A stretch of 64,000 nucleotides of DNA from an uncultured delta proteobacterium (GTDB lineage Bacteria > Desulfobacterota > Binatia > Binatales > Binataceae), in contig CAWBJH010000001.1 of assembly GCA_963789115.1 (NCBI GenBank), positions 72,816-136,815 on the forward strand. The letters are read 5' to 3'. Both the position numbers and the translations under genes were made by a program. Positions 6,696 to 32,320 of this stretch are shown here, in pieces. The notes under the pieces were generated by a model that was not told the origin of the DNA, ran no database searches, and saw only the letters and a list, made by a program, of their open reading frames with translations. Each line of letters begins with the position of its first letter. Positions within the stretch are counted from its first letter, which is position 1.

Positions 6696-7187
6696 TCAGG
6701 GCAGTGGGGTGGGGGTGGGCATGATGTAGGTCTCCGGATTCGGCGGCGGCGCCGGTGCAACGCGCCTGAACTCGACCACGTTGGAGGGTTCGCCGCGCGT
6801 TTCGTCCTCAGTCACGGAGATGACGTCGTAGCGATAGACGCGGCCGGTCTCGGTGGCGGTGTCGATATATTCAAACTTGAGCACCTTCTGGAAGCGCTCA
6901 CGGTCGGTAACCGGCAGCCTGACCAGCGGCTCGAACGATTGGCCGGGCTCAGCGCGCATCACGATGAAGCCCGCCAGGTCCTTCATCTTGCGGCCTCGCG
7001 AGTAAAGCTCGGGGCGCGGCCACGCGAGCCGGATTCCATCCTTGTCGGCGCTTGCCGTCAGAGCGACGATCTTCTCGGGCTGCACCAGCTCGGGCGGCAT
7101 CGGGCGTCCCTTCACACCGCATCCCGTGATCGCCGCCGCCACAGAGAGCGCGCCGGCCGCGGCGATCCAGTTTTTCGGGCGCCTCAT
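6696..7187 (-). CDS. Lipoprotein of unknown function at the LppL/LptM-like position between lysA and argH
   Basis: Start MRRPKNWIAAAGALSVAAAITGC has a signal peptide and lipobox. The start ATG overlaps the argH stop by 4 bp. Confidence 0.7.
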   Translation of the reverse strand: MRRPKNWIAAAGALSVAAAITGCGVKGRPMPPELVQPEKIVALTASADKDGIRLAWPRPELYSRGRKMKDLAGFIVMRAEPGQSFEPLVRLPVTDRERFQKVLKFEYIDTATETGRVYRYDVISVTEDETRGEPSNVVEFRRVAPAPPPNPETYIMPTPTPLP

Positions 7188-8674
7188 CGGCGCGTCAGCT
7201 CTGCCAGGCGCCGGCGCACGAGTCGGGGCGCGGGGCCGCCGGCCACCCGCCTTGCCGCGATCGAGCTTTCCGCCGACAGCAGCTCGAGCGCATCCTCGCG
7301 GAACGCGAGCGAGCACTGGCGCAGGTCGTGGATGGTCAAGTCGGTGAGCGGGCGATTGCGGACCGCAGCGTGGCGGGCCAGCAGGCCGACAATTTCATGG
7401 GCTTGTCGGAACGGCACGCCGCGTTTGACCAGGTACTCGGCCAAGTCGGTCGCGAGCGCCCATCCCCCGGCCGCCTCGCGCATCGCCCGGGTGTTGAACG
7501 CGAGCCGCGGCCACAGCCTTGCCATCAAGTCGAGCGAAGGCTTGATCGAATCGAGCGCGTCGAAGACCCGCTCCTTGTCCTCCTGCAGGTCGGAGTTGTA
7601 GGCGAGCGGCAGGCCCTTGAGCACCGTGAGCATCGCGACTAGGTCGCCGGCCACGCGCCCGCTCTTGGCCCGGATCAACTCGAGCAGGTCCGGGTTCTTC
7701 TTCTGCGGCATCATCGAGCTCCCGGTCGCGAACTCGTCGGGGATCGTGACGAAGCCGAACTCGGCGCTCGACCACAGGATGATCTCCTCGCTCATCCGCG
7801 ATAGATGGATGGCCGCGATGGCGGAGGCGGAAAGGAAGTCGAGCACGAAGTCGCGATCCGATACGGCGTCGATGCTGTTCTCGGCCAGTTTCCGGAACTT
7901 GAGCTCGCGTGCGACGAACCGGCGATCGATCGGCAGCGTGGTCGCGGCCAGCGCCCCCGCCCCGAGCGGCATCACCGCGCTGCGCTCGCGCGCCTGTGCG
8001 AAGCGCTCGCGGTCGCGATCGAGCATCTCGACGTAGGCGAGCAGGTGATGGGCCAGCGAGACCGGCTGCGCGCGCTGGAGATGAGTGTAACCCGGCATCA
8101 CGCTGTTCACGTGCCGCCGCGCAACCCCGATCAGCGCGGCGCGCAGGCGCGCGAGGGACCGCATTACCTCGTCGATCTCGTCGCGCAGGAACAGCCGGAG
8201 ATCGAGCGCCACCTGGTCGTTGCGCGAACGGGCGGTATGGAGCTTCGCGCCGGCGGCGCCGATCTTCGCGATCAGCCGGCGCTCGATGGCGAGATGGATG
8301 TCTTCGTCGGAGAGCTCGAAACGGAAACGCCCGCCGCCGATCTCGCGCTCAATCCGCTCGAGTCCCGCCACGATGCGGGCCGCCTCGCGACGCGTGATTA
8401 GTCCCACGTGCGCCAGCATCCGGGCGTGCGCGATCGAGCCGCGGATATCGTGGCGGTAGAGCCGCCGGTCGAACGGCAGCGAGGCCGTGAACGCCTCGAC
8501 TTCCTTGAGCCGGCGGCGCGCGAATCGCCCGCGGATGAGACCTCCGCGCTGTCCAGCGTGCGCCTTCGAAACTTGAGACCTTTTGTTGTCGCTCACGCGA
8601 GGTTGTCGGTTGACACGCGAGGCCAACTCAGGAGAGCCTTCCGCAATCTTCGCAAACCCGGGTGCGTACTCCAT
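7184..8674 (-). CDS. argH: Argininosuccinate lyase. The start is uncertain: either the ATG at 8674, which has an SD supplied by the repeat hairpin, or the GTG at about 8596
   Basis: Full-length ArgH similarity including LIRGRF, the SRNDQ motif and the GSSMMPQKKNPD signature. Confidence 0.9.
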   Translation of the reverse strand: MEYAPGFAKIAEGSPELASRVNRQPRVSDNKRSQVSKAHAGQRGGLIRGRFARRRLKEVEAFTASLPFDRRLYRHDIRGSIAHARMLAHVGLITRREAARIVAGLERIEREIGGGRFRFELSDEDIHLAIERRLIAKIGAAGAKLHTARSRNDQVALDLRLFLRDEIDEVMRSLARLRAALIGVARRHVNSVMPGYTHLQRAQPVSLAHHLLAYVEMLDRDRERFAQARERSAVMPLGAGALAATTLPIDRRFVARELKFRKLAENSIDAVSDRDFVLDFLSASAIAAIHLSRMSEEIILWSSAEFGFVTIPDEFATGSSMMPQKKNPDLLELIRAKSGRVAGDLVAMLTVLKGLPLAYNSDLQEDKERVFDALDSIKPSLDLMARLWPRLAFNTRAMREAAGGWALATDLAEYLVKRGVPFRQAHEIVGLLARHAAVRNRPLTDLTIHDLRQCSLAFREDALELLSAESSIAARRVAGGPAPRLVRRRLAELTRR

Positions 8675-8678
8675 ATGT

Positions 8679-8916
8679 GCCCTCTCCCTGCGAAGCTGGG
8701 CGAGGGTGAGGGTGAGGGACCATACGGCGCCGCATTGGCTGCGCGGCGCCGAGGATTGAAGCGCCGCACGCTACCTCAAGCGCTTGCGACGCCGGCGTTT
8801 CGGCGGGAAGCGGAGGCAGAATCGAATGTCGCTGCCGGCGCAGCGACGCTGCGGTCCCTCTCCCGACGGTCGAAGCGACCGTCGGCCTCTCCCGACCCGG
8901 GAGAGGCCATCGCAGA
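8679..8916. repeat. Structured GC-rich intergenic repeat, copy A. It has two conserved blocks, five perfect or near-perfect hairpins and a variable spacer
   Basis: About 85% identical to 53844-54067. Hairpins include ccctctccc/gggagaggg, cggcgccgcg/cgcggcgccg, gtcgctgc/gcagcgac, cgacggtcg/cgaccgtcg and gcctctccc/gggagaggc. Confidence 0.8.
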
Positions 8917-9195
8917 TGGCGTCCGCGAGCTTCGTGATTACCTCTCATGCGAGGCGAGTCTACCAAAGTTCACGCATCAGGGCGTACAGGCGATAACCGG
9001 CCTTGCGCGCGCTCACCGCGTTGGTCGCATCTCGCACGGGCATCCGCGCGCCGCGCAACTGATCACGCCGTTGGGGTGGGTGATATGCACGTTCATCTTG
9101 TGATGGCACTTGGGGCAGTTGCCGCCCGGCGCGCGCGGGACCGCCCGTAGCTGCGGGCGTGGCGGCCTGAACTGGATGACCTTGCCCAAGCCCGG

Positions 9196-10428
<1,233 letters not shown>

Positions 10429-21039: not shown

Positions 21040-22901
21040 ATAGGGGGTAGCGGCGGACCGCTACTCCCCTGCCACACCACCGGACATGCGGGTCCGCATC
21101 CGGCGGTTCGGAAGGTTGAGGTTAATCGGCAAGGCGAGGAACTCCGAGTCGGTCGTAGTAGCGGATGGTGAGTCCGGTCTGGACCAGCTTGGCAGCGCGA
21201 TACCACCAGCGCCGTCCGGTGACAGCGGCCTCGGCCGCCGCGACGTGAGGCAGTCCGAGTCTACGCAGCTCGGTGTAGATTTTGGGGCCACGCTTCCACT
21301 GCTTGAGTTGCAGCGCACGCAGACGATGGCGAATCCACTTGTCGTGGTCAGCGAAGGCTCCCGGTGTATCCGCCAGTTGGAAGTACTGCTTCCATCCCGG
21401 CAGATAGCTCCGTAGCTCCGCCACCACCGTGCGCAGACTTCGCCCGCCGCTGCGCCGGGTAATCTGGCGCACCCGTTGCCTGAGCATCGCGGTGGCCTTG
21501 GGAGCGACGCGGCGCATGACCGCACCGCCCTTGCCGTACCAGAAGCTGAAGCCAAGCAAGCTCCGCTTCGATACCGGCGCCACCGCGCTCTTTTCGCGGT
21601 TGACTCGTAGCCGGAGCCGCGCGTACAGACGCTCCAGCGCCGTCATTACCCGCTCGCCCGCGCGCTTGGACCGCACGTACACATTGCAGTCGTCGGCATA
21701 GCGGACGAAGGCATGGCCGCGCTTCTCCAACTCCTTGTCGACCTCGTCGAGCAGCAGATTGGCCAGCAGCGGTGACAGTGGTCCGCCCTGCGGCGTCCCC
21801 TCCAGGCGCTCCACCACTACCCCGTTGGCCATCATGCCGGCCTTGAGGTAGCGGCGGATTAATCGCAGCAGGCGGCTGTCGCCGACTCTTCTCGCCAGCC
21901 TTCCCATCAGCACATCGTGATTGACGCGGTCGAAGAATTTCTCCAAGTCCACGTCCACCACCCAGCGCCGGCCTTCCCTGACGTAGCGCTGCGCGGATAA
22001 AACCGCGTCGTGGGCGCTGCGCCCCGGTCGAAAGCCGAAGCTGTGCTCCGAGAAGCTGGGGTCGAATAGCGGCTGCAGCACCTGCAGGATGGCCTGTTGG
22101 ATAAGCCGGTCGAGCACGCACGGGATGCCCAGTTCGCGCATCCCGCCGCCCGACTTGGGAATCTCCTGCCGCCGCACCGGTTTCGGCTGGTAGGTGCCGC
22201 CCAGCAGTTGCTCGCGCACCCCTGACCAGCGCTCCATCAAGCATTGCGGCAGTTCTTCCACTGTCATCCCATCGACCCCGGGGCTGCCCCGGTTCTCCCG
22301 CACCCGCGCCAACGCCGCCTTGACGTTGCCGCGCGCGACCACCTGCTCCATCAGGTGGTCGTCTCCCGAGCGCACCTTCCCGTTCGTCATCGTCGGCGCT
22401 TCGCCACTTCGCCCAGCCCTCGGAGCTTCACTCCTGGGCTTGAACGCAAGTTCCGCTTGCGCGGAGTTCCGGCGCCTGGCGCGGTTCGGACTCACGATGG
22501 TTTCGCTCTCCCTTCCGTTCGGCCCTTCACCAACTCGGCTTTCAAGGCCCTGCCCTCTCCGGCTGGCTACTACGGCCTCGGCTGACTTCTCGCGCCGCCT
22601 TATGGCGTCACCCTTCCAGGCGCAGGGCGAGATCTCCCCAGGTAAGACTCCGTGACCTTCCCCGCACAACCGCCGGATCTACGCAGTGGCTCCTTGGCCG
22701 CGAGGGCTTCGCGGTCTTTTGCCCGCTCGCCCTGAGCCACCGCGCCTTGTATCCGATTCCTGTTCGTCGGCTCGCGGGTTTGCTCCACGCTTCTTTCAGC
22801 GATTGCCTCGCGGCTCATCGCCTTGCGCTTCGCTAGTGCTCGCTGCGGTCTGCTCACACAGGGGACTTTCACCTCACAAGTCACGCGTCGTGCTGGGCAC
22901 A
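21040..22901 (-). mobile_element. Bacterial class C (IIC) group II intron, about 1.86 kb, with boundaries approximate at the 3' end
   Basis: The 5' GUGUG lies directly after the U-tract of a rho-independent terminator. The RT/maturase ORF is internal. Domain V- and VI-like hairpins lie downstream of the ORF at about 21030-21095. Confidence 0.75.
21122..22390 (-). CDS. Group II intron reverse transcriptase/maturase, about 422 aa, with no endonuclease domain
   Basis: RT motifs including YADD and a C-terminal X/maturase region. The start is set to MTNGKVRS. The upstream part of the long ORF covers intron RNA domains I-III. Confidence 0.85.
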   Translation of the reverse strand: MTNGKVRSGDDHLMEQVVARGNVKAALARVRENRGSPGVDGMTVEELPQCLMERWSGVREQLLGGTYQPKPVRRQEIPKSGGGMRELGIPCVLDRLIQQAILQVLQPLFDPSFSEHSFGFRPGRSAHDAVLSAQRYVREGRRWVVDVDLEKFFDRVNHDVLMGRLARRVGDSRLLRLIRRYLKAGMMANGVVVERLEGTPQGGPLSPLLANLLLDEVDKELEKRGHAFVRYADDCNVYVRSKRAGERVMTALERLYARLRLRVNREKSAVAPVSKRSLLGFSFWYGKGGAVMRRVAPKATAMLRQRVRQITRRSGGRSLRTVVAELRSYLPGWKQYFQLADTPGAFADHDKWIRHRLRALQLKQWKRGPKIYTELRRLGLPHVAAAEAAVTGRRWWYRAAKLVQTGLTIRYYDRLGVPRLAD

Positions 22902-22940
22902 CAAAAACGGGCGGGCGGCGGATTCTTCCGCCGCGCGCCC
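22902..22940 (-). terminator. Rho-independent terminator of the lipoprotein gene, which is also the IIC intron target hairpin
   Basis: GGGCGCGCGGCGG-aagaauc-CCGCCGCCCGCCC followed by UUUUUG, then the intron 5' GUGUG. Confidence 0.7.
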
Positions 22941-23016: not shown

Positions 23017-23376
23017 CTACCGGAGGTTCTGCTTGGGGACGAAGCCCTGGTAACCTTTGAAGGGCCCTTCGAGCAATTCGACGCGAGCGCCCACTGAATC
23101 TCTCGCGATTATCCTGACCCGCGTCGCCTGCTCCGCGTCTTTGGACTCCCCGCCGCGCACCATCCCGTCCAGCATCGACACGAAGCTCCTCTGGCCATCG
23201 GTCATCGGGCCTTTCATCGCCCTTCGAATGTCAAGCGCGGCCTTGTAGATTTCCTCGTTCTGATAGACTTTGACCGTATGCTCGTCCCTGCCGGCAACTA
23301 ATCGATGGCTGCATCCGCATGCGCCAAGCGCGATTACGAGAACGGCCACACTGAGACCAAACTTGCGAAAACCCAT
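23017..23376 (-). CDS. Small lipoprotein, hypothetical
   Basis: MGFRKFGLSVAVLVIALGACGC lipobox, 119 aa. Confidence 0.6.
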   Translation of the reverse strand: MGFRKFGLSVAVLVIALGACGCSHRLVAGRDEHTVKVYQNEEIYKAALDIRRAMKGPMTDGQRSFVSMLDGMVRGGESKDAEQATRVRIIARDSVGARVELLEGPFKGYQGFVPKQNLR

Positions 23377-23552
23377 TTTTCATTTCCCCGCTCGATAAGA
23401 AGTCATACGCGAGTCGCTCGAGCTTCATGCATATGAGGGATCAAAACCGCCGGCGGACACACCGTTGCCGGGTGCCCGCCGGTGCCCTCCTGCCGAAGAG
23501 TGCGCAGGCTTACGTTACAGTTGTAATGCCGTCTGCGACGCCTCTCCGCTGC

Positions 23553-24509
23553 TTATTGGGCCAGCTTGGAATGCACGGTACCTGACGCCCAAAGATCGCC
23601 GAAGACACCGAACGACTCTGTGACCGGCGACGTCGTCCGTGGCAGGTTGGCGAACTCCACGTGTGAAACAATGTCGACCTTCGGGTCGTTGCAGCACTCG
23701 GCGAAAGAATTTGCGCTGCCGCAAATGCCGAAGGCCGAAATATAGAAGTGGATCACCGCTGACGAGCCAGAATCGTTGGCGAAAGGAAGAGTCGCCGTCT
23801 GTACGGCCTCCGTACTGGTGACGTAGCCGCCGCCGCCGGGATTGAGGCAGGTTCCGTTTCCCGCACCAGTGCAACACGCATACGGCGCACCAGCTCCGGT
23901 GCAGCTACTGTTACTGGTGGTACCCAACCACTGGTTGGCGCAGTTGTACGGTGATTTGGTGCCGGGCAAAGTCCCAGTGCATTCCAGTTTGCATCTCGCA
24001 TCCTCCGAGGCGGCCTTGGGGCCCCCGCAGATCCGAGTGGTGAAGCCTGTGGCGGTCGGGTTAAAAACCTGAATGTCCTTCGTTTCGGTGAATGGGCCGT
24101 CGTAGAACACATTGAAGTCCCCTTCGCCGACGAGACTTCCGGCACCGTCGTAAGTGATCTGCATCACTCCGCTCATTTTGGAATCCGGCCCGAACACAAG
24201 GCCCTTGAGCACGGCAGCCGCTTCCGATTCGCTAACCCCGGTAGGAAAGGTGAGGCTTGAGCTGCACTTTCCGTGCGTACCAAAGTCCACACCCAGTTCG
24301 TGTACGGCAGCCTGGAGGCCCGCGCTCGGGGCTCCAAACGCGGACCCCGAAGCCGAGTCGTTCAGGTCCGCTTCAAACTCTGAAACGTAGGTCCCGGTGA
24401 TATTGGCGTCGCTGAACGTGTTCGCCGCCATCGCCTCAACCGGGGTCATCACCGACCCAGCGAATGCCGCAGCCAGAACACAACAGAACAGTTTCCTGAT
24501 TTTCATCAA
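23553..24509 (-). CDS. Secreted Cys-rich protein of unknown function, with about 20 Cys in the mature part. The gene is lower in GC than its surroundings
   Basis: Signal peptide MMKIRKLFCCVLAAAFAGSVMTPVEAMA, then Gly/Ser/Thr/Cys-rich stretches (CTGAGAPYACCTGAGNGTC, AECCNDP). No family recognised. Confidence 0.6.
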   Translation of the reverse strand: MMKIRKLFCCVLAAAFAGSVMTPVEAMAANTFSDANITGTYVSEFEADLNDSASGSAFGAPSAGLQAAVHELGVDFGTHGKCSSSLTFPTGVSESEAAAVLKGLVFGPDSKMSGVMQITYDGAGSLVGEGDFNVFYDGPFTETKDIQVFNPTATGFTTRICGGPKAASEDARCKLECTGTLPGTKSPYNCANQWLGTTSNSSCTGAGAPYACCTGAGNGTCLNPGGGGYVTSTEAVQTATLPFANDSGSSAVIHFYISAFGICGSANSFAECCNDPKVDIVSHVEFANLPRTTSPVTESFGVFGDLWASGTVHSKLAQ

Positions 24510-24841
24510 AAGCTCCTTTCGGTGTTCATTGCGCCGGAAAATTCCGTGGCCTTCGCTTTTAGCAAGAGATGATGACTGGCCGGTGACGCCGTCGCGAATC
24601 TTCTATGAAGCGACGATCACGAAAGGGTGACTCCTTTTGACCCAGGTTTAGGCCGCTAATTGTTGCGCTCGCTTCTGCCCTGGAATCTTCGCGTGAAAAT
24701 CTTAGTGCTGTCTTCTTCCAAGCGTCACAAGTACGTAACCACCCCTCGCTAAGCTCAACCCGTACATCGTTCGGCGGCCGCGGGGGGCGCGGGGTGACCT
24801 CCCTGCCCGTGCCCCTCGAGCGGCCAGCCGTAGCAGGAGGC

Positions 24842-26722
24842 GACATGAAACCAAGAGTCTCGAAAGCCTTTGTGCCGAGCGCAGGGTCGGGGGTTGTTCG
24901 CCGCGCGATCCTGGCGGCGGCGCTGATCTGGTTGGTGGCGTCGTGGTCGACGGCGGTATGGGCGACTATCATACAGGGTGACTTCTCGATCTTCGGGGAT
25001 CTCAGCTCAAGATGGTCTGGGCGATGGGGTGAGGGCTCGGCGCAGGGCGGCACCTCGTCGGATATATCCAATGCCATTCCCGGCAACGCGCCGACCGAGA
25101 CCGGCGGCAGCTTCGACTTCAGTCACTGGGATCTGGTCCAGGCCCGCCAGATAGTCAACGTGCGGCCCGACTATCATTTCGTCAAGAATTACAAGCTGCT
25201 GGACCGGATCGATTTGCCGCTGCTCAAGGACGCGGACTTCTTCGCGATCTATCGCGGCTGGTACGATGCGTTCCCTGATCTCAAGCCTGACGGGCGCGCC
25301 GAGACCGCCCGCGACTGGAGCGCTTACACCGAGAAGGACAAGATAGACGAGTTCGAGCGCGACGACCTGCGGGAATACTATGGTCAGCTCAACTTCAGCG
25401 ACAACTTCTCGATGCGAGTGGGCAAGCAGCAGGTGATCTGGTCGGAGGCCGACGCGCTGTCGGGCACCGACGTAACGAATCCCACCGACTATCGCTATCA
25501 CTGGAACCATTTTGAGTCGGCTGAGGACCTGCGCGAGAACCTGCGGATGGTGAAGCTCGACTACATCCTGCCCGACTTCCTGAAGACCGCCAGCAACCAG
25601 CTTGAACTCTTCTGGATCCCCGGCGACTGGGAACACGGTGCGCTCATCGTCAATAGTACCGAAGATGCGCGCAGCCCGTACGTGGCCCCGGTGGCGCTGA
25701 ATGCGGCCAGCTATGAAAACCAGTCCGGGGAACCCTACCGCAGCCAGCTCTTTGGCGACGACGGCGCGGCGCCGATGACAACGCTCGGGCCTCTAAAGAC
25801 GTGGTTTCTCGACCTGCACACCATCTATTACCAGAACAAAATTCCCAACTCGCTTGCCAGCAGCGAGGGTGGCGCTCGCTACTCGACCCTACTACCGATC
25901 GGGAATGGCCTCCAGACCAGCTTGATCTGGCTATACGAGGCGCGCAGCGACAAGGAAGGATTTTGCCTGACCTGCGGGATGCCGGCCGGGGCGCAGCCCT
26001 TGTTCAAGTCGGGCGGTCCCCCCGGCTCCTACCTGCTTTTCAATGTGTGGGACTACGGTCCGCCACGCATGTCGAATAACGTGGGGACCATCCGGGTGCC
26101 CGTGCAGATCGAGTATGTCCGCCAGAATTACTTCGACATGACTGGGACCTACTATGACAAGGATTTGACCGATATGGTCTATCGCTACGACTTCCTCTAT
26201 TCTCCCAAGATCGGTTCGGCCTTCTTCTGCGGAAGCCAGAAACAGCCGAGCGGAGTCGTTTCAGGCTCCTACTTCGATGACAGCTGTACCCGCTGGACCG
26301 AGTTCACGCGCTGGATCGTGGCCGCCGACCGGCCGACCTACATTCCGTGGCTGTCCAAGCAGCACACCTTCCTCACCGCGCAGAACACGGTGACCTGGTA
26401 TCCGGATCGGCACCAGAACGCGGTGCCTTACTTTCCCACCGACGTTGGAAAGCTGCGCGAGATCAGTAACTTTTTCTTCCTGGGGGCGACAAACTGGCTA
26501 ATGAACGGCCAGTGGACGGCGCTGAACGTCTTGGAATGGGATTGGGACAACAATTGCGGTGCGCTCTCCTCGACAAACTCATACCGTTACTCGGAAAATG
26601 TGCTGTTCGGCCTCAACGCGGTTTGGTACGTGGGACGAAGCGGCCGCTTTACCGACCCCTACGCGCTCAGCCGCGCCCAGCGGGACAACGAACTCGAGTT
26701 TCGCTTCACTTATGAACTCTGA
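24842..26722 (+). CDS. DUF1302-like outer-membrane protein, predicted beta-barrel
   Basis: About 625 aa with a signal peptide, rich in aromatic and Gly/Asn/Asp residues like beta-barrel proteins. The start is set at the ATG after AGGAGG. The assignment is from memory of the family and partner context. Confidence 0.5.
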   Translation, partial: DMKPRVSKAFVPSAGSGVVRRAILAAALIWLVASWSTAVWATIIQGDFSIFGDLSSRWSGRWGEGSAQGGTSSDISNAIPGNAPTETGGSFDFSHWDLVQARQIVNVRPDYHFVKNYKLLDRIDLPLLKDADFFAIYRGWYDAFPDLKPDGRAETARDWSAYTEKDKIDEFERDDLREYYGQLNFSDNFSMRVGKQQVIWSEADALSGTDVTNPTDYRYHWNHFESAEDLRENLRMVKLDYILPDFLKTASNQLELFWIPGDWEHGALIVNSTEDARSPYVAPVALNAASYENQSGEPYRSQLFGDDGAAPMTTLGPLKTWFLDLHTIYYQNKIPNSLASSEGGARYSTLLPIGNGLQTSLIWLYEARSDKEGFCLTCGMPAGAQPLFKSGGPPGSYLLFNVWDYGPPRMSNNVGTIRVPVQIEYVRQNYFDMTGTYYDKDLTDMVYRYDFLYSPKIGSAFFCGSQKQPSGVVSGSYFDDSCTRWTEFTRWIVAADRPTYIPWLSKQHTFLTAQNTVTWYPDRHQNAVPYFPTDVGKLREISNFFFLGATNWLMNGQWTALNVLEWDWDNNCGALSSTNSYRYSENVLFGLNAVWYVGRSGRFTDPYALSRAQRDNELEFRFTYEL

Positions 26723-26759: not shown

Positions 26760-27475
26760 CGGAAAACTGCCGCATCCCAGATTTCGACCGGAAGCGACGC
26801 CGAGGAACGGCTGTGGTTTGCGGTCCTCGCACAAGGACTTAAGGACTTCATCAGCGGCGGACGCGACGCTCGAGGTGGCGCCAGGAGCCAGAAGTCTCCC
26901 ACAGCGTGTAGTCGAGACGCCGAACTCTGGCTTTTTGACGACTCCTGGCGAGTTGGCGGCTTTATGTGGGTCGCCGACCTTTGCGCTGTCGACCCCGAGG
27001 TTGTCCGAGGACGGCTGCTCGAGGAAGGTCGCCTGAACGGAGGTGAGACACGGGCTCCAGCCGCATCGCAGCGAAAGTTTCAAGCTCTCCTCGGACCCGT
27101 TCTTCGTCGAGAAGGTTCGCGGCATCGTAGGACTTTATGGCAATCCTCCGGACAAGGCGCTGGTGCTGGGCCTCGACGAAAAGAGCCAAATCCAGGCGCT
27201 GGAATGCAGCCAGGCGGTGCTACCGATGGGGCTGGGCTACGTCGAATGCGCGACCCACGACTACTATTGCCACGGTACCACCACCCTGTTTGCAGCGCTC
27301 AACATTCTGGACGGTTCGGTGATCCGGCAGTGCAAGCCGCGCCATCGTCACCAGGAGTTACTCTTTCATGCAGGGTGGTTCTGCCAGCGGCCAAGTGTCT
27401 CGTCTCGAAAATCGTTTTTCCGCATCCTGCCAGGGCCTGCCAACCACCCAAGGCGAACTCCGGGCTAATCAGTCG
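26760..27475 (+). pseudogene. IS630-family transposase remnant, truncated and frameshifted
   Basis: ...[50 protein letters not shown]... matches the IS630 transposase core. The second half of the DDE domain is missing. Upstream pieces lie in other frames. Confidence 0.65.
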
Positions 27476-27483
27476 CAAGCCCC

Positions 27484-28806
27484 TTACGGTGCCGCTCTGA
27501 CCATCGCCTCCACCGTGCAGAACTGCTTGTCCACAGCGCCCATGTTGATGTACCAGCATTCGCGCTCGGGCGTTTGCTGGCCGGGCAGGTAGCACATCGA
27601 GGCGTATCCGCCCTGAACGTCGTAGGAACCGGCGCCGACAATGAATTCGCGCTTGAAGGGATAGACCGCCACCCTTGCGTCAGGCACCGGACGGTCGCGG
27701 TAGGTCAGCCAGTAGATATGGGTGCGCCAGAGTTGCCCGCGCCGGTCGTAGGTATCGATGTATGGTTCGAACCAGACTTCGGAGTCGAGGTACACGACCG
27801 TGCGCGAGTCGAGCGCGCGACTGGCCTGGCCGACATCGCGCCGCGGCGTGGCCTCGACCACGTACATGTGGCGCAACTCCCAGTTCTCCGGGCAGGCGGA
27901 GGCGCCGCCGTCGTACGGGCAGGTTACCTCGGGCGAATGAATGGCGTGCACGCAGCCGAGCATCTCCTTTTCCCCCAGGAAGCGGTAGTCGTACTGCTCG
28001 GTCTTGGGATTAAAGCCCGAGTAGTGGTCAGCGTCATGCGTCTGGGCAGAACTGGCGGTGCTCAGGATCGACTCGTCGAGCCGGCGCACGCGCCGCGAAC
28101 CCGGCGACCAAGTCCAGCTATCGTCGCCCCGATTCGGGTCCGCGTAGCGAAAGCGGATAAGTCCGTCACCGCGGTCTTCGGCGGGCGCGAGGATCGGATA
28201 AAGCGCGAACAGCCAGAGCCGATTGGACTGCTTGAAGTCGGGATCGGCAGGCAGCGGCTCGACCTCGGTACGCCCCACCAGGTTGTAGCCCGCGTAATGA
28301 CCAACCACGATACGCTCGACGACTCGCCTTGAGCGGCCGGGAGAAACGTACTCGCTCGGGCAGTCGAAAAAGCGCAGGTCGTAGTCGTCGGACCCCGCAG
28401 GGCGGAAAACGTTGTTCCAGATGATTTTGGTTGCGGCGTACGGATCGTTAACGTCGATCAGCGGGAAGGGCTGACCAGCGACATAGCCGACGAGGCTGCG
28501 ATGTGCAGAGTCGAGGCTCACCTGGCTCGAGTACTTTTCGGTCGCTTCCGTGTACGGCGGCGGCCAATCGACTCGCTCGGTCGGCACGATGTTCATCCGC
28601 ATGTCGTGCTTCACCATGTACAGCACGCCTGGTGACACCAAATCCTTGACCCGGTCGGCGTCTTGCGCCGAGATGACATCGCCGGGTCTGACGCCGGCCT
28701 GCGCGCCCGCGCCAAGGAGCGCGGCTTCGACGAGCAGAGCGGCCCCGCCGAGGAGCAATTTGCGTCTCCAATGCTGAATCATACTGGCTTGCCCTCCGAG
28801 CACCAT
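27484..28806 (-). CDS. DUF1329-like periplasmic protein with a LolA-like fold, partner of DUF1302
   Basis: 440 aa with a signal peptide. The N-terminal pattern is ISAQDADRVKDLVSPGVLYMVKHDMRMNIVPT. There is a GAGGAAA RBS. It sits 3' of macAB on the same strand. Confidence 0.5.
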   Translation of the reverse strand: MVLGGQASMIQHWRRKLLLGGAALLVEAALLGAGAQAGVRPGDVISAQDADRVKDLVSPGVLYMVKHDMRMNIVPTERVDWPPPYTEATEKYSSQVSLDSAHRSLVGYVAGQPFPLIDVNDPYAATKIIWNNVFRPAGSDDYDLRFFDCPSEYVSPGRSRRVVERIVVGHYAGYNLVGRTEVEPLPADPDFKQSNRLWLFALYPILAPAEDRGDGLIRFRYADPNRGDDSWTWSPGSRRVRRLDESILSTASSAQTHDADHYSGFNPKTEQYDYRFLGEKEMLGCVHAIHSPEVTCPYDGGASACPENWELRHMYVVEATPRRDVGQASRALDSRTVVYLDSEVWFEPYIDTYDRRGQLWRTHIYWLTYRDRPVPDARVAVYPFKREFIVGAGSYDVQGGYASMCYLPGQQTPERECWYINMGAVDKQFCTVEAMVRAAP

Positions 28807-28960
28807 GAGAGATTTTCCTCAAGGTCTTGGATTCCCGCTGCTGTCGCGGCAATGGCGCAGTACCCCAGCCTTGAGGGTTGGTCCCGTTTAGCCAATTGCG
28901 CGAGACGGGTTCAACCACGAATGTGTGAACGTTTCGTGTCTTGCGCGAGACCTGGATCGG

Positions 28961-31102
28961 TCACTCGTAGCGGAGGGCCTCGATCGGGTTCAGCATCGAG
29001 GCTTTGTACGCCGGGTAATAGCCGAAGAACACGCCGACCGCGGCAGCGAAGGCGAATCCGCCCACGACCGCCGCCGGCGAAATCAGCGTCGGCCATTGCG
29101 CCAGCGCCGACAGCACCTTGGAGGCGACTATGCCCAGGGCTACGCCGGCAAGCCCGCCCATCGCGCTGAGCAGCGCCGACTCGACCAGGAACTGCAACAG
29201 GATGTGCAGGCGGCGCGCCCCGATCGCCATCCGAATCCCGATCTCGCGCGTGCGCTCGGTCACCGACACCAGCATGATGTTCATGATCCCGATCCCGCCC
29301 ACCAGCAGCGAAATCGAGGCGACCGCCGCCAGCAGCAGCGTCATGACCCGGGTGGCGCTCTCGGAGGCCTGCGCGATTTCGTTGAGACTGCGCACGGTGA
29401 AGTCGTCGTCCTGCCCGGGTTGAATGTGATGGCGGCGATGCAGCACCTGCTGGACCTCGTCCTGCGCCGCGCCGACATCCTGGGCGTCACGCGCCTTGAT
29501 GAAGATCATGTTGACGACCCCGGAGATCTTGGGCGGGCTCCCGAACGGGCTGATGATTGTGGTACCCGACTGGTACACCGGGTTCTGGGCAGTCGTGATC
29601 GGGACGTTGAGGTAAGGATTCAGGACCGGATTGGTCGACCCCGTGGTGCTCGACGGCACGCTGGCGCTGACCTGTGAGGTGCCCAGCACCTTTCGCTCGG
29701 CCGTACTGAACGGAAGGAGCACGACGTTGTCCTGGTCCTGGCCGTAGCCGGATTGGCCTTTGACCGCGAGTACTCCCACCACGCGCAGCGGAAAATTCTT
29801 GACCCGGACCGCGGTGCCGACCGGATTTTCGCCCGGCACGTAGAGATTGTTCACCACCGACTGGCCGAGCAGGCATACCGGCGCTGCGCTGCGCGTCTCC
29901 TCGTCCGTGAAGTTGCGCCCGGCGGCGACCGGCCAGTCGCGGATCGTGAGGTAGGCGGGCGTCGTGCCGTTGATGCCGGTGCTCCAGTTCTGGTTGCCGT
30001 AGACGACCTGCGTCACCTGGCGGTCGATATAACTCACCGCGGCAACCGTGTGCACTTCCTTCTGGATCGCCTCGGCGTCGGCCACGGTCAGGGTCGAGGT
30101 ACTGCCGGAGCCGACGCGCACGCCGCTGGACGTGGTGGCGCCGGGCAGGATGACCAGCAGGTTCGTTCCCAAGCTCTGGATCTGCTGCTCGACCGAGTAG
30201 CGCGCGCCGTCACCCACCGCAACCATCGCGATCACCGCGGCTACGCCGATGAAGATACCGAGCATCGTGAGCACCGCGCGCGTCTTGTTGCGGTTAAGCG
30301 CCCGCGAGGCCGCGCTCAGCGCCATCGCGCCGAACGTCCACGCCCCGCCGCCCCGTCGCGCCGCCGCCGCGTCGGCCGGCGCCGCGATTGACGGCGCGGC
30401 GGCGGGGGCGATTTGGCCCTTGCGCTGGTCCGAGACAATCGCCCCGTCGCGGAAAGTCACCACGCGATCGGCGTAAGCGGCAACGTCGGCATCGTGGGTC
30501 ACCACGATCACCGTGATGCCGTGCTCGCGGTTCAGCCGGCTGATGATTTCCATGATCTCGCGCGAGTTGGTCGAGTCGAGATTGCCGGTGGGCTCGTCGG
30601 CCAGCAGGATCGCGGGCTCGTTGACGAGCGCGCGCGCGATCGCGACGCGTTGCTGCTGGCCGCCGGAGAGCTGGTTGGGATTGTTCTGCCCACGTCCCTG
30701 GAGCCCGAGCATTTCGAGCAGCTTCTCGGCGCGTTCCTTTCTGTCGCTGTTCCATTGCGAGGAGTAAAACAGCGGCAGCTCGACGTTCTCGAGCGCCGTC
30801 GTCCGCGAGAGCAGGTTGAAAGTCTGAAAGACGAAGCCGATCCGCCGGCTGCGGACCGCCGCCAATTCCTGTTCACTGAGCGAGGCGACGTCGACGCCTT
30901 CGAGCAGGTAGCTGCCCCCCGTCGGCTGGTCCAGGCATCCGATGATATTCATCAACGTGGACTTGCCCGAACCCGAGGCGCCCATGACCGCGACAAACTC
31001 GCCGCGCTCCACGCGCAGGTTCACGCCGATGAGCGCGCGCACCTCGATCTCGCCCATCTGGTAGGTCTTGTCCAGACCGACGATCTCGATAACCGGAACC
31101 AT
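28961..31102 (-). CDS. macB: MacB-type ABC transporter with fused ATPase and FtsX-like permease
   Basis: Walker A motif GASGSGKST, LSGGQQQRVAIARAL signature, then a permease with a large periplasmic loop and four TM helices. Confidence 0.85.
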   Translation of the reverse strand: MVPVIEIVGLDKTYQMGEIEVRALIGVNLRVERGEFVAVMGASGSGKSTLMNIIGCLDQPTGGSYLLEGVDVASLSEQELAAVRSRRIGFVFQTFNLLSRTTALENVELPLFYSSQWNSDRKERAEKLLEMLGLQGRGQNNPNQLSGGQQQRVAIARALVNEPAILLADEPTGNLDSTNSREIMEIISRLNREHGITVIVVTHDADVAAYADRVVTFRDGAIVSDQRKGQIAPAAAPSIAAPADAAAARRGGGAWTFGAMALSAASRALNRNKTRAVLTMLGIFIGVAAVIAMVAVGDGARYSVEQQIQSLGTNLLVILPGATTSSGVRVGSGSTSTLTVADAEAIQKEVHTVAAVSYIDRQVTQVVYGNQNWSTGINGTTPAYLTIRDWPVAAGRNFTDEETRSAAPVCLLGQSVVNNLYVPGENPVGTAVRVKNFPLRVVGVLAVKGQSGYGQDQDNVVLLPFSTAERKVLGTSQVSASVPSSTTGSTNPVLNPYLNVPITTAQNPVYQSGTTIISPFGSPPKISGVVNMIFIKARDAQDVGAAQDEVQQVLHRRHHIQPGQDDDFTVRSLNEIAQASESATRVMTLLLAAVASISLLVGGIGIMNIMLVSVTERTREIGIRMAIGARRLHILLQFLVESALLSAMGGLAGVALGIVASKVLSALAQWPTLISPAAVVGGFAFAAAVGVFFGYYPAYKASMLNPIEALRYE

Positions 31103-31117
31103 CGCGGTCCCTGACCC

Positions 31118-32320
31118 TCAATGCGGAAAGTGAAGTGACGAAGGGGGTGGAGGACCGCCCGTGCGGCCGGCCTGGACCTGCTCGGTCACGACCGCGTCGC
31201 CTGGCTTCAGGTCGCCGCTTATGACTTCGACGTTGCTGCCGTCGTCGAGCCCGGTGACGATCGAGACCCGCTTGAGCTGTCCACCCTGCTCGACATATAC
31301 GCCGGCCCGCCGCGAGGTCTGGGGGGCCTCCGAATTGGCCGCGGCCGCGTGTTGATGCTTCATGCGCGCGAAGCGCAGCGCCGGCACCGGTACGCACAGC
31401 GCATTGTCGCGCCGCGCGGTGACAATCGTCACGTTGGCCGTCATCCCGGGCTTGAGCAGCAACTCGGGGTTGGCGACATTGAGCACCACGTCATAGGTAA
31501 CCACGTTCTGCACCGTGATCGGCGCCTGCCGCACCTGGCCAACGACGCCCTCGAACACGCGATCCGGGTACGCATCGACCCGGAAATCTGCCGGCTGTCC
31601 GAGTTGCAGGTTGCCGATATCGGACTCGCTCACGTTGGCGTCGACCTGCATCTTGGTCAGGTCCTTCGCGATCAGGAACAGGGTCGGGGTCTGAAAGCTC
31701 GCGGCCACGGTCTGCCCGACGTCGACGTTGCGCGAGACCACGGTACCATCGACCGGAGAGATGATGTTCGTATAGTCGAGCTGGACCTGCGCGTCGCGCA
31801 GATTAGCGTGCTGCTGCTGGATATTGGCCCGGTCGAGCGCAACCTGGGCTATAGCCTGATCGTAGGCGCTGCGGGCGCTGTCAACCGTGTCCTGCGACAC
31901 CGCTTCCACCTTGAGCAGATCACTGTCGCGCTCGAAGGTGATTTTCTTGTAAGCCATGTCAGCCAGGTCCTTGCCGAGCTGGGCCTTGGCGTTGGCCAGC
32001 GCGGCCGCCATTTCGTCCACTTTGACCTGGAACGGGCGTGGGTCGATCTTGGCGATCAGTTGGTTCTCTTTGACCGGCGAGTTGAAGTCCGCGTAGAGCG
32101 TCTGAATCGGCCCCGAGACGTAGCTGCCGACCTGCACAACGATCACCGGGTTGACGGTGCCGGTTGCGATCACGGCGCGCACTATCGAGCCGCGCGTGAC
32201 CGGCGCGGTAACATACGTGGCCGCGGGAGAGCTGAAGCGCCAGAAGTAAATGGCCAACGCCAGCAGAATCACAGCGCCGGCCCCCGCCCAGAGCGTGATT
32301 TTCGAGGTCGGACGGATCAT
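31118..32320 (-). CDS. macA: Periplasmic adaptor subunit, HlyD/MacA family membrane fusion protein
   Basis: N-terminal TM helix, coiled-coil, and beta-barrel and lipoyl domains of efflux adaptor proteins. It is immediately upstream of macB. Confidence 0.8.
   Translation of the reverse strand: MIRPTSKITLWAGAGAVILLALAIYFWRFSSPAATYVTAPVTRGSIVRAVIATGTVNPVIVVQVGSYVSGPIQTLYADFNSPVKENQLIAKIDPRPFQVKVDEMAAALANAKAQLGKDLADMAYKKITFERDSDLLKVEAVSQDTVDSARSAYDQAIAQVALDRANIQQQHANLRDAQVQLDYTNIISPVDGTVVSRNVDVGQTVAASFQTPTLFLIAKDLTKMQVDANVSESDIGNLQLGQPADFRVDAYPDRVFEGVVGQVRQAPITVQNVVTYDVVLNVANPELLLKPGMTANVTIVTARRDNALCVPVPALRFARMKHQHAAAANSEAPQTSRRAGVYVEQGGQLKRVSIVTGLDDGSNVEVISGDLKPGDAVVTEQVQAGRTGGPPPPSSLHFPH

Follow-up and report, generated by a model that had tools for sequence, protein, structure and literature searches.

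The gene at positions 23553..24506 on the minus strand of a 64,000-nucleotide stretch of DNA from an uncultured delta proteobacterium (the window; GenBank assembly GCA_963789115.1, contig CAWBJH010000001.1, positions 72,816 to 136,815) encodes an exported, cysteine-containing beta-barrel protein, referred to here as the Cys-protein. It belongs to a small, rare and unannotated protein family of uncultured soil bacteria, the Binataceae; the family is new, its fold class is known. The main new result is the genomic context of this gene: in 13 of the 13 loci with enough sequence it adjoins a gene for a lipoprotein of about 118 residues. Most likely the Cys-protein binds or carries something in the cell envelope, although our overall guess at its function is made with low confidence.

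The Cys-protein gene lies in an open reading frame (ORF) of 318 codons at 23553..24509. Its first codon is a TTG, directly followed by an ATG at 24506, which has an AGGAG 6 nt to its 5′ side and is the likely start. Translation from this ATG gives 317 amino acids, 100% identical over the full length to the hypothetical protein WA005_17545 of a Candidatus Binataceae metagenome-assembled genome (MAG); the Binataceae are part of the candidate phylum Binatota. The start signals and this identity establish the ORF as a real gene and agree with a first-pass annotation of the window, which had called 23553-24509 coding. The same annotation had assigned the product a Sec signal peptide, and the N-terminus does have this layout: K2, R4 and K5 are followed by a hydrophobic core and by A25-M26-A27 before A28. 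A signal peptidase I cut is predicted after A27, and the signal peptide (residues 1-27, 24426..24506, minus strand) holds two of the 14 Cys. According to the alignments, all homologues have an equivalent N-terminus finishing in an AxA-like motif. The mature part of 290 amino acids (29.5 kDa, pI 4.5) is rich in Ala, Gly, Ser and Thr, acidic and overall not hydrophobic.

The 12 Cys of the mature part make up 4.1% of its residues, the highest share among the 44 genes of the window and about five times their median of 0.82%. The earlier description of the protein as extremely Cys-rich is nevertheless too strong, the value being far below that of truly Cys-rich proteins. The Cys motifs quoted in that description are all present, CTGAGAPYACCTGAGNGTC at residues 202-220 and AECCNDP at residues 269-275. 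Eight Cys are conserved throughout the family (position 81/82, C160, C172, C176, C189, C262, C271 and C272). Four further ones (C202, C211, C212 and C220) lie in or beside a 20-residue insertion which, in alignments A1 and A2, is limited to the Cys-protein and its 73%-identical relative; this lineage-specific loop comprises residues 197-220 (23847..23918, minus strand). Because the pattern is conserved and 21 of the 22 family members carry an even number of Cys (8, 10 or 12) in the mature part, all Cys are probably engaged in disulfides, four of which would be common to the family. The single member that has no C160 also has no C189, suggesting that these two residues form one of the pairs. 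Other invariant family motifs are G-T-Y on strand 1, YDGxGS, (R)ICGG, GGGGY, HFY(I)SA and CCxDP. From C189 to the GGGGY motif the sequence forms a hypervariable loop, which tolerates Cys-bearing insertions.

Database searches confirmed that the protein has no recognisable family, as had been stated from the sequence. Pfam and NCBIfam scans of the Cys-protein gave no family match (the best match below cut-off was RINGv, with E 0.075 and 13.6 bits where 21.6 are required), no family recurred when all 22 aligned members were scanned, and among these members no Pfam match to lipocalins, avidins or YceI was seen even at E ≤ 5. A PDB sequence-profile search with the barrel protein returned noise and nothing relevant. 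Relatives are few: 13 were found in a database of 5.8 billion proteins and 14 by a profile search of 1.84 billion cluster representatives, some of them only about 21-25% identical. A profile search of the former database with alignment A2 added one short fragment, P0025, and nothing more. Close relatives occur in only four of 185,579 species-representative genomes, all four of them MAGs of "uncultured delta proteobacterium" whose loci match the Binataceae ones. This contig scan used alignment A1, which covers the close clade, A2 being too divergent for the purpose. A scan of viral contigs revealed no relatives of the Cys-protein. In one MAG (MFD03399.bin.2.12; locus L008, 6875..7898) the homologue is split into two overlapping ORFs, which reflects either a frameshift due to an assembly error or a pseudogene.

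A structural model was obtained with AlphaFold2. A run with 13 close sequences reached a predicted local distance difference test (pLDDT) value of only 46 and was discarded; the run with 22 sequences gave a pLDDT of 75.6 and a predicted template modelling score of 0.76. Most strand blocks of this model have pLDDT values of about 80-94, whereas the loop of residues 197-220 lies below 50. The core is an eight-stranded antiparallel up-and-down beta-barrel with strands of 7-11 residues and connections of 61, 5, 20, approximately 85, 21, 8 and 3 residues. The long connections, of 61 residues after strand 1 and about 85 after strand 4, are found at both ends of the barrel, as are the segments that would bear the disulfides. 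Hydrophobic and polar residues alternate along the strands. The hydrophobic face is conserved, with invariant Gly residues (G127, G161 and G309), and the polar face opposite is variable. Foldseek comparisons of the model with the PDB and BFVD, the kind of search proposed in the first-pass annotation, gave no match at E ≤ 1e-3 and hence no confident assignment to a known family. The matches that were obtained are generic barrels with 5-9% identity, namely de novo designed barrels, both soluble and transmembrane, PagL, OprF, OmpA, NspA and OmpW, avidins, YceI and FABP, and Slam-dependent surface lipoproteins. Thus, the fold class, an eight-stranded barrel, is clear from the model, but there is no specific homologue.

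The barrel is probably soluble rather than inserted in a membrane. The conserved hydrophobic face with its invariant Gly residues fits a hydrophobic core better than a lipid-facing surface, and the model has long connections at both ends. Furthermore, the protein is acidic and not hydrophobic, and it has no C-terminal aromatic beta-signal; it ends in ...HSKLAQ, and its relatives end in E, Q, P or N.

The lipoprotein gene, which had been overlooked in the first-pass annotation, is a constant partner of the Cys-protein gene. In the window it lies at 23017..23376 on the minus strand and encodes 119 amino acids. The 13 informative loci are the window and L001, L003, L004, L008, L009, L020, L021, L022, L024, L025, L011 and L018; among these the pairing is obligate, with the lipoprotein gene directly downstream on the same strand in 12 and adjacent on the opposite strand in L018. 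The more distant family members P0018 and P0021 have no lipoprotein gene. Lipoproteins of the Binataceae are 52-57% identical to the window copy, and the closest relative (L020) reaches up to 81%; beside the distant members P0017 and P0015, the copy downstream in L011 is 33% and that in L018 54% identical. The assignment as a lipoprotein follows from a signal peptide that finishes in a lipobox with an invariant Cys22, found in eight of eight orthologues in the context L-A-x-[SA]-G-C (...LGACGC in the window). Towards the C-terminus the protein carries the motif G-A-x-V-E-L-L-E-G-P-x-K-G-Y-x-G-F-V-P. This motif is KOW/SH3-like, with sub-threshold KOW matches in seven of eight members, and a PDB profile search with the lipoprotein likewise returned sub-threshold KOW matches only.

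The two genes are separated by 135-195 bp, and this spacer contains one copy per locus of a conserved element, which was defined by an alignment of six loci. In the window (23420..23494, minus strand) it consists of an invariant GGCAGGAGGGC followed by a GC-rich hairpin of 14-17 bp and TTTT; the other copies begin at 10937 in L001, 10931 in L003, 8668 in L004, 7898 in L008 and 7922 in L009. The window hairpin differs in sequence but retains its pairing by compensatory, covarying changes. Outside the window, the loop of the hairpin (CCUCC) could pair with an upstream GGAGG. The element matches no Rfam family; it may act in attenuation, in termination or in stabilising the mRNA. Its conservation supports the idea that the two genes are co-transcribed with some differential control. 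An AGGAGG-like motif in the spacer is followed by no start codon, so that a small ORF at this place was rejected. The two-gene unit ends at an intrinsic-terminator-like hairpin with T5 (22903..22940, minus strand), recognised by sequence and fold (-28.9 kcal/mol); a simple terminator scan had not listed this site.

In the Binataceae the pair is typically embedded in the order divergent MpaB/Lcp-like oxygenase, Cys-protein, lipoprotein, DUF1302-like protein, P450 (opposite strand) and MscL, where the DUF1302-like and P450 genes are not always present. The DUF1302-like gene occurs in six of 10 Binataceae loci. L008 retains the lipoprotein gene, but MpaB, DUF1302-like and MscL genes are all missing from its surroundings. 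SCPU-PapD-Usher-SCPU clusters directly precede the genes for the distant members P0015 and P0017 and their lipoproteins, and P0018 and P0021 are located among envelope genes encoding OprB, an OmpA-like lipoprotein and PMT_2 glycosyltransferases. Next to the distant pair and the chaperone-usher cluster of L018, four tandem paralogous genes (6821..9490, plus strand) encode secreted Cys-containing proteins of about 185-218 residues, which are rich in Thr, Ser and Ala and have no Pfam match. Kinship of these four paralogues to the Cys-protein family was rejected, since hhalign shows no relation.

In the window, the DUF1302-like gene is transcribed divergently from the Cys-protein gene. It occupies 24845..26722 on the plus strand and encodes 625 amino acids from a likely ATG at 24845 preceded by AGGAGG, within an ORF of 642 amino acids. 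The intergenic region of 338 bp (24507..24844) has a GC content of 0.58, which fits the divergent arrangement and AT-richer control region of about 330 bp described previously; no sigma-70-like promoter consensus was found in this spacer. The label DUF1302 used in that description stands only by an indirect route. No Pfam match was obtained for the window protein even at E ≤ 10, and a PDB profile search with it gave nothing. A 50%-identical relative, P0127, does reach PF06980 with 28 bits (cut-off 23.2; profile positions 61-225), and several other relatives carry precomputed PF06980 matches, so that the homology of the window protein is transitive only. With more than 360 homologues, many of them in the Binataceae and several in the same genome, the neighbour appears to be a divergent member of a large group of DUF1302-like paralogues that expanded in the Binataceae. 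Its identity is 54-55% to the product of the gene following the lipoprotein gene in L001, L003, L004 and L009, and higher, 60-61%, to paralogues in its own genome. Other genomes have the DUF1302-like gene downstream in the Cys-protein operon or lack it. From these comparisons, the divergent placement in the window is probably a local rearrangement. By analogy with published predictions for DUF1302 proteins, the product may be an outer-membrane barrel.

DUF1302 proteins are predicted outer-membrane proteins and DUF1329 proteins are LolA-like periplasmic proteins; their mechanism is not established (10.1101/2020.07.04.188060; PMC6394551). Genes of both types have been linked to growth on Tween 20, fatty esters and monoterpenes (10.1101/2020.07.04.188060; PMC6394551). 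One paralogue of the DUF1302-like gene in the same genome has the usual arrangement, in which it follows DUF1329, and lies beside a glycyl-radical enzyme and its activase. Operons with a Cys-protein gene have no DUF1329 gene within 7-10 kb.

Taken together, we tentatively propose, while rating it below an even chance, that the Cys-protein is a soluble barrel tethered by its lipoprotein, that it binds or carries a hydrophobic molecule, and that in the Binataceae it may stand in for DUF1329 in serving a DUF1302-type protein. The Sec-exported, acidic protein of about 29.5 kDa would form an eight-stranded barrel with a conserved hydrophobic interior face; four disulfides common to the family and two more in the lineage-specific loop insertion would hold its long loops and short helices together. 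It might fold oxidatively in the periplasm and then be held at a membrane by the lipoprotein, where it would bind or carry a hydrophobic small molecule. As a final step, in the Binataceae, it might serve the DUF1302-type outer-membrane protein and so replace the LolA-like DUF1329 partner. This proposal draws on the conservation of the family under purifying selection, the even Cys pattern, the conserved hydrophobic face of the strands, the adjacent lipoprotein gene in all informative loci, the covarying hairpin between the two genes, and Binataceae neighbours that include DUF1302-like, P450, MpaB/Lcp-like oxygenase and MscL genes. The replacement of DUF1329 is suggested because the paralogue has the order DUF1329 to DUF1302-like while the Cys-protein operons have no DUF1329 gene nearby. 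The Binatota are predicted degraders of alkanes and methyl compounds (PMC8262859), and a role as hydrophobic carrier would be consistent with this predicted hydrocarbon metabolism and with the P450 and MpaB/Lcp-like neighbours.

Several observations weigh against this proposal. Among the generic fold matches, membrane barrels have scores as good as those of the others. Four of 10 Binataceae loci have no DUF1302-like gene, and the distant members sit beside a chaperone-usher pilus cluster instead, so the link to transport would not be universal. The oxygenase neighbours are missing here; neither an MpaB/Lcp-like nor an MscL gene is present in the whole 64-kb window. Finally, the window does contain a DUF1329 gene, at a distance of only 0.8 kb from the far side of the DUF1302-like gene. 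A more far-reaching version has the barrel protein and the SH3/KOW-like lipoprotein form an unrecognised two-component envelope module that exchanges hydrophobic substrates, for example terpenoids or alkanes, with an outer-membrane translocon, replaces DUF1329 in the Binatota and feeds P450 and MpaB/Lcp-type oxygenases; we regard this as unlikely.

The Cys-protein was compared with four kinds of known system. Like the DUF1329 partners of DUF1302 proteins (AmeB/AmeA of Castellaniella defragrans and PP_0766/PP_0765 of Pseudomonas putida), it is an exported, probably non-membrane protein encoded beside a DUF1302-type gene, in organisms that handle hydrophobic substrates (PMC6394551; 10.1101/2020.07.04.188060). 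However, DUF1329 is an open LolA-like half-barrel and the Cys-protein a predicted closed eight-stranded barrel, with no relation in sequence or fold; moreover, the latter has four conserved putative disulfides and a dedicated lipoprotein, and the DUF1302-like gene is present in about half of its loci. With calycin-type barrels (avidins, the YceI polyisoprenoid-binding protein, lipocalins and FABPs) the model shares the eight-stranded antiparallel up-and-down architecture. Family signatures such as the structurally conserved regions of lipocalins or the biotin-binding residues of avidins are lacking, as are known ligand residues, and the Cys-protein has about 180 additional loop and helix residues and the eight conserved Cys. 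It differs from OmpW/AlkL/OprG channels, and also from OmpA and OmpX, in having no beta-signal and long loops at both ends, and from the OmpW/AlkL/OprG type additionally in the conservation of its hydrophobic face, the many probable disulfides and its acidic, overall non-hydrophobic character. Slam-dependent surface lipoproteins (PmSLP-1, the C-lobe barrel of TbpB) are alike in combining an eight-stranded barrel, a lipoprotein and an outer-membrane partner gene. In contrast to these, the lipid anchor is on a separate small protein, since the signal peptide of the Cys-protein ends in AMA|A with no Cys at +1 and hence no lipobox, and the similarity is weak (Foldseek E 0.3). No Pfam match to DUF560 (Slam) occurred among the called genes of L001, L003, L004, L006, L011, L015, L016 and L018; the remaining loci were checked with named query proteins.

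Other roles appear less likely. The Cys-protein could be a surface structural or adhesive protein that is exported or anchored via the lipoprotein and an outer-membrane translocon, either the DUF1302-like barrel or an usher, and whose disulfide-knotted loop forms a binding surface. The position of P0015 and P0017 with their lipoproteins behind chaperone-usher clusters would agree with this, as would the hypervariable loop after C189 with its Cys-bearing insertions, the richness in Gly, Ser, Thr and Ala, and the presence of a Slam-dependent surface lipoprotein among the weak Foldseek matches (probability 0.51). On the other hand, profile similarity to SCPU pilins is absent (hhalign of A2 gives 9% probability, with only the signal peptides aligned), pilins do not have a closed-barrel fold, the loci showed no Slam-like gene, the barrel protein itself lacks a lipobox, and the two chaperone-usher loci may share their synteny by descent. 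We consider such a role somewhat improbable. It appears less likely again that the Cys-protein resides in the outer membrane as a small eight-stranded barrel like OmpW/AlkL/OprG or Opa, with very large disulfide-rich loops, and serves as a channel or a receptor at the surface, perhaps for hydrophobic substrates. The alternation of hydrophobic and polar residues in the strands and a neighbourhood with outer-membrane and hydrocarbon-related genes would be expected of such a protein, but the C-terminus (...SKLAQ) has no aromatic beta-signal, the connections at both ends are long (61 and about 85 residues) and the strands just 7-11 residues. It is the hydrophobic face with its invariant Gly that is conserved, the disulfide-bearing segments lie at both ends, and no outer-membrane-protein family in Pfam matched.

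An extracytoplasmic enzyme built on the barrel scaffold, acting for example on an envelope polymer or a hydrophobic substrate through conserved polar residues, is decidedly improbable. H253, H282, N132, E128 and D274 are located in or near the barrel and are invariant in the close clade, yet only D274 is invariant throughout the family; conservation of H253 and H282 does not extend to the distant clade, no motif or family matched, and the fold matches are generic. Even less likely is a Sec-exported toxin or bacteriocin-like protein for which the downstream lipoprotein would provide periplasmic immunity. Every locus does combine a large exported protein with a small lipoprotein, and the family is very rare and patchy and has one hypervariable loop. 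However, the synteny across Binataceae species is stable, single-copy and apparently vertical, with housekeeping-type neighbours such as MscL, and the two partners have diverged moderately and at comparable rates (identities of 42% for the barrel protein and 55% for the lipoprotein). Neither a toxin domain nor any PDB or Pfam match was found; the lack of relatives on viral contigs counts only against a phage-borne element.

Base composition had originally been taken as a sign of horizontal acquisition. The observation itself was accurate: the GC content of the Cys-protein gene is 0.591 compared with 0.646 ± 0.027 for 954-bp windows, which places it at the 2.4th percentile, and its GC at third codon positions is 0.70 compared with approximately 0.80-0.88 in most genes of the window. 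In synonymous codon choice it is the fifth and the lipoprotein gene the third most atypical of the 44 window genes. The conclusion drawn from the low GC could not be upheld. Homologues in four other Binataceae genomes have a GC content of 0.58-0.60 (0.51-0.55 at first and 0.50-0.52 at second codon positions) within conserved synteny, and this value stays the same while the GC of the host loci varies from 0.61 to 0.67. Because the homologues share the same GC whatever that of their host locus, low GC is largely a property of the Cys-protein family and gives no evidence of a recent transfer into this genome, although such a transfer may still have taken place. That the gene is a recently acquired orphan with no conserved role, as the earlier reading implied, is therefore scarcely credible. 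The percentile, the codon usage and the group II intron and IS630 remnant that flank the low-GC block would speak for it, but orthologues of the same composition and in the same operon are found in at least four other Binataceae species genomes, and the eight Cys and many motifs are invariant; the conserved synteny already largely refutes it.

If the proposed carrier role is true, the Cys-protein would offer a first handle on how hydrophobic compounds move across the envelope of the Binatota, an uncultured, globally distributed soil phylum, and it would represent a second kind of periplasmic partner for the uncharacterised DUF1302 outer-membrane proteins. The family is defined by the eight-Cys signature, the barrel fold, the obligate lipoprotein neighbour and the intergenic hairpin, which is enough to seed a new family entry and can guide expression and structural work. 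Specialists will find little surprise in it as such, orphan secreted proteins being common in uncultured phyla.

A group II intron and a remnant of an IS630 element enclose the low-GC block at 23.0-27.5 kb, an arrangement that suggests local rearrangement. The intron (21040..22902, minus strand) lies immediately 3′ of the terminator that closes the Cys-protein/lipoprotein unit. Its reverse transcriptase/maturase ORF is located at 21122..22669 (minus strand; RVT_1 and GIIM), and the RNA parts on the same strand comprise the 5′ GUGUG at 22902, Rfam domains D1-D4 at 22522..22817 and, at 21109..21040, hairpins resembling domains V/VI. Bacterial class C introns typically insert behind a terminator. 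Where this genome has the intron, related ones have a DUF1302-like, P450 or MscL gene. At the other side, between the DUF1302-like and DUF1329 genes, a truncated IS630-family transposase remnant (27043..27468, plus strand) matches NF033545 with E 2.6e-14 over profile positions 107-209 of 299.

DUF1329 genes occur in two settings. In the window, an apparent operon at 27484..32320 on the minus strand encodes an HlyD-type membrane-fusion protein (31118..32320), a fused MacB-type ATP-binding cassette transporter (28961..31102) and a DUF1329/LolA-like protein (27484..28806). Its layout resembles LolCDE with LolA, and it converges on the DUF1302-like gene. In the locus of paralogue P0028 (L027 of GCA_049279895.1, 849..7959), a DUF1329 to DUF1302-like pair directly follows genes for a PFL-like glycyl-radical enzyme and a radical-SAM activase, with a GntR regulator upstream; the P0028 protein is also encoded on a 3.66-Mb contig of the genome from which the window derives. 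This locus may serve the activation of a hydrocarbon or an organic acid.

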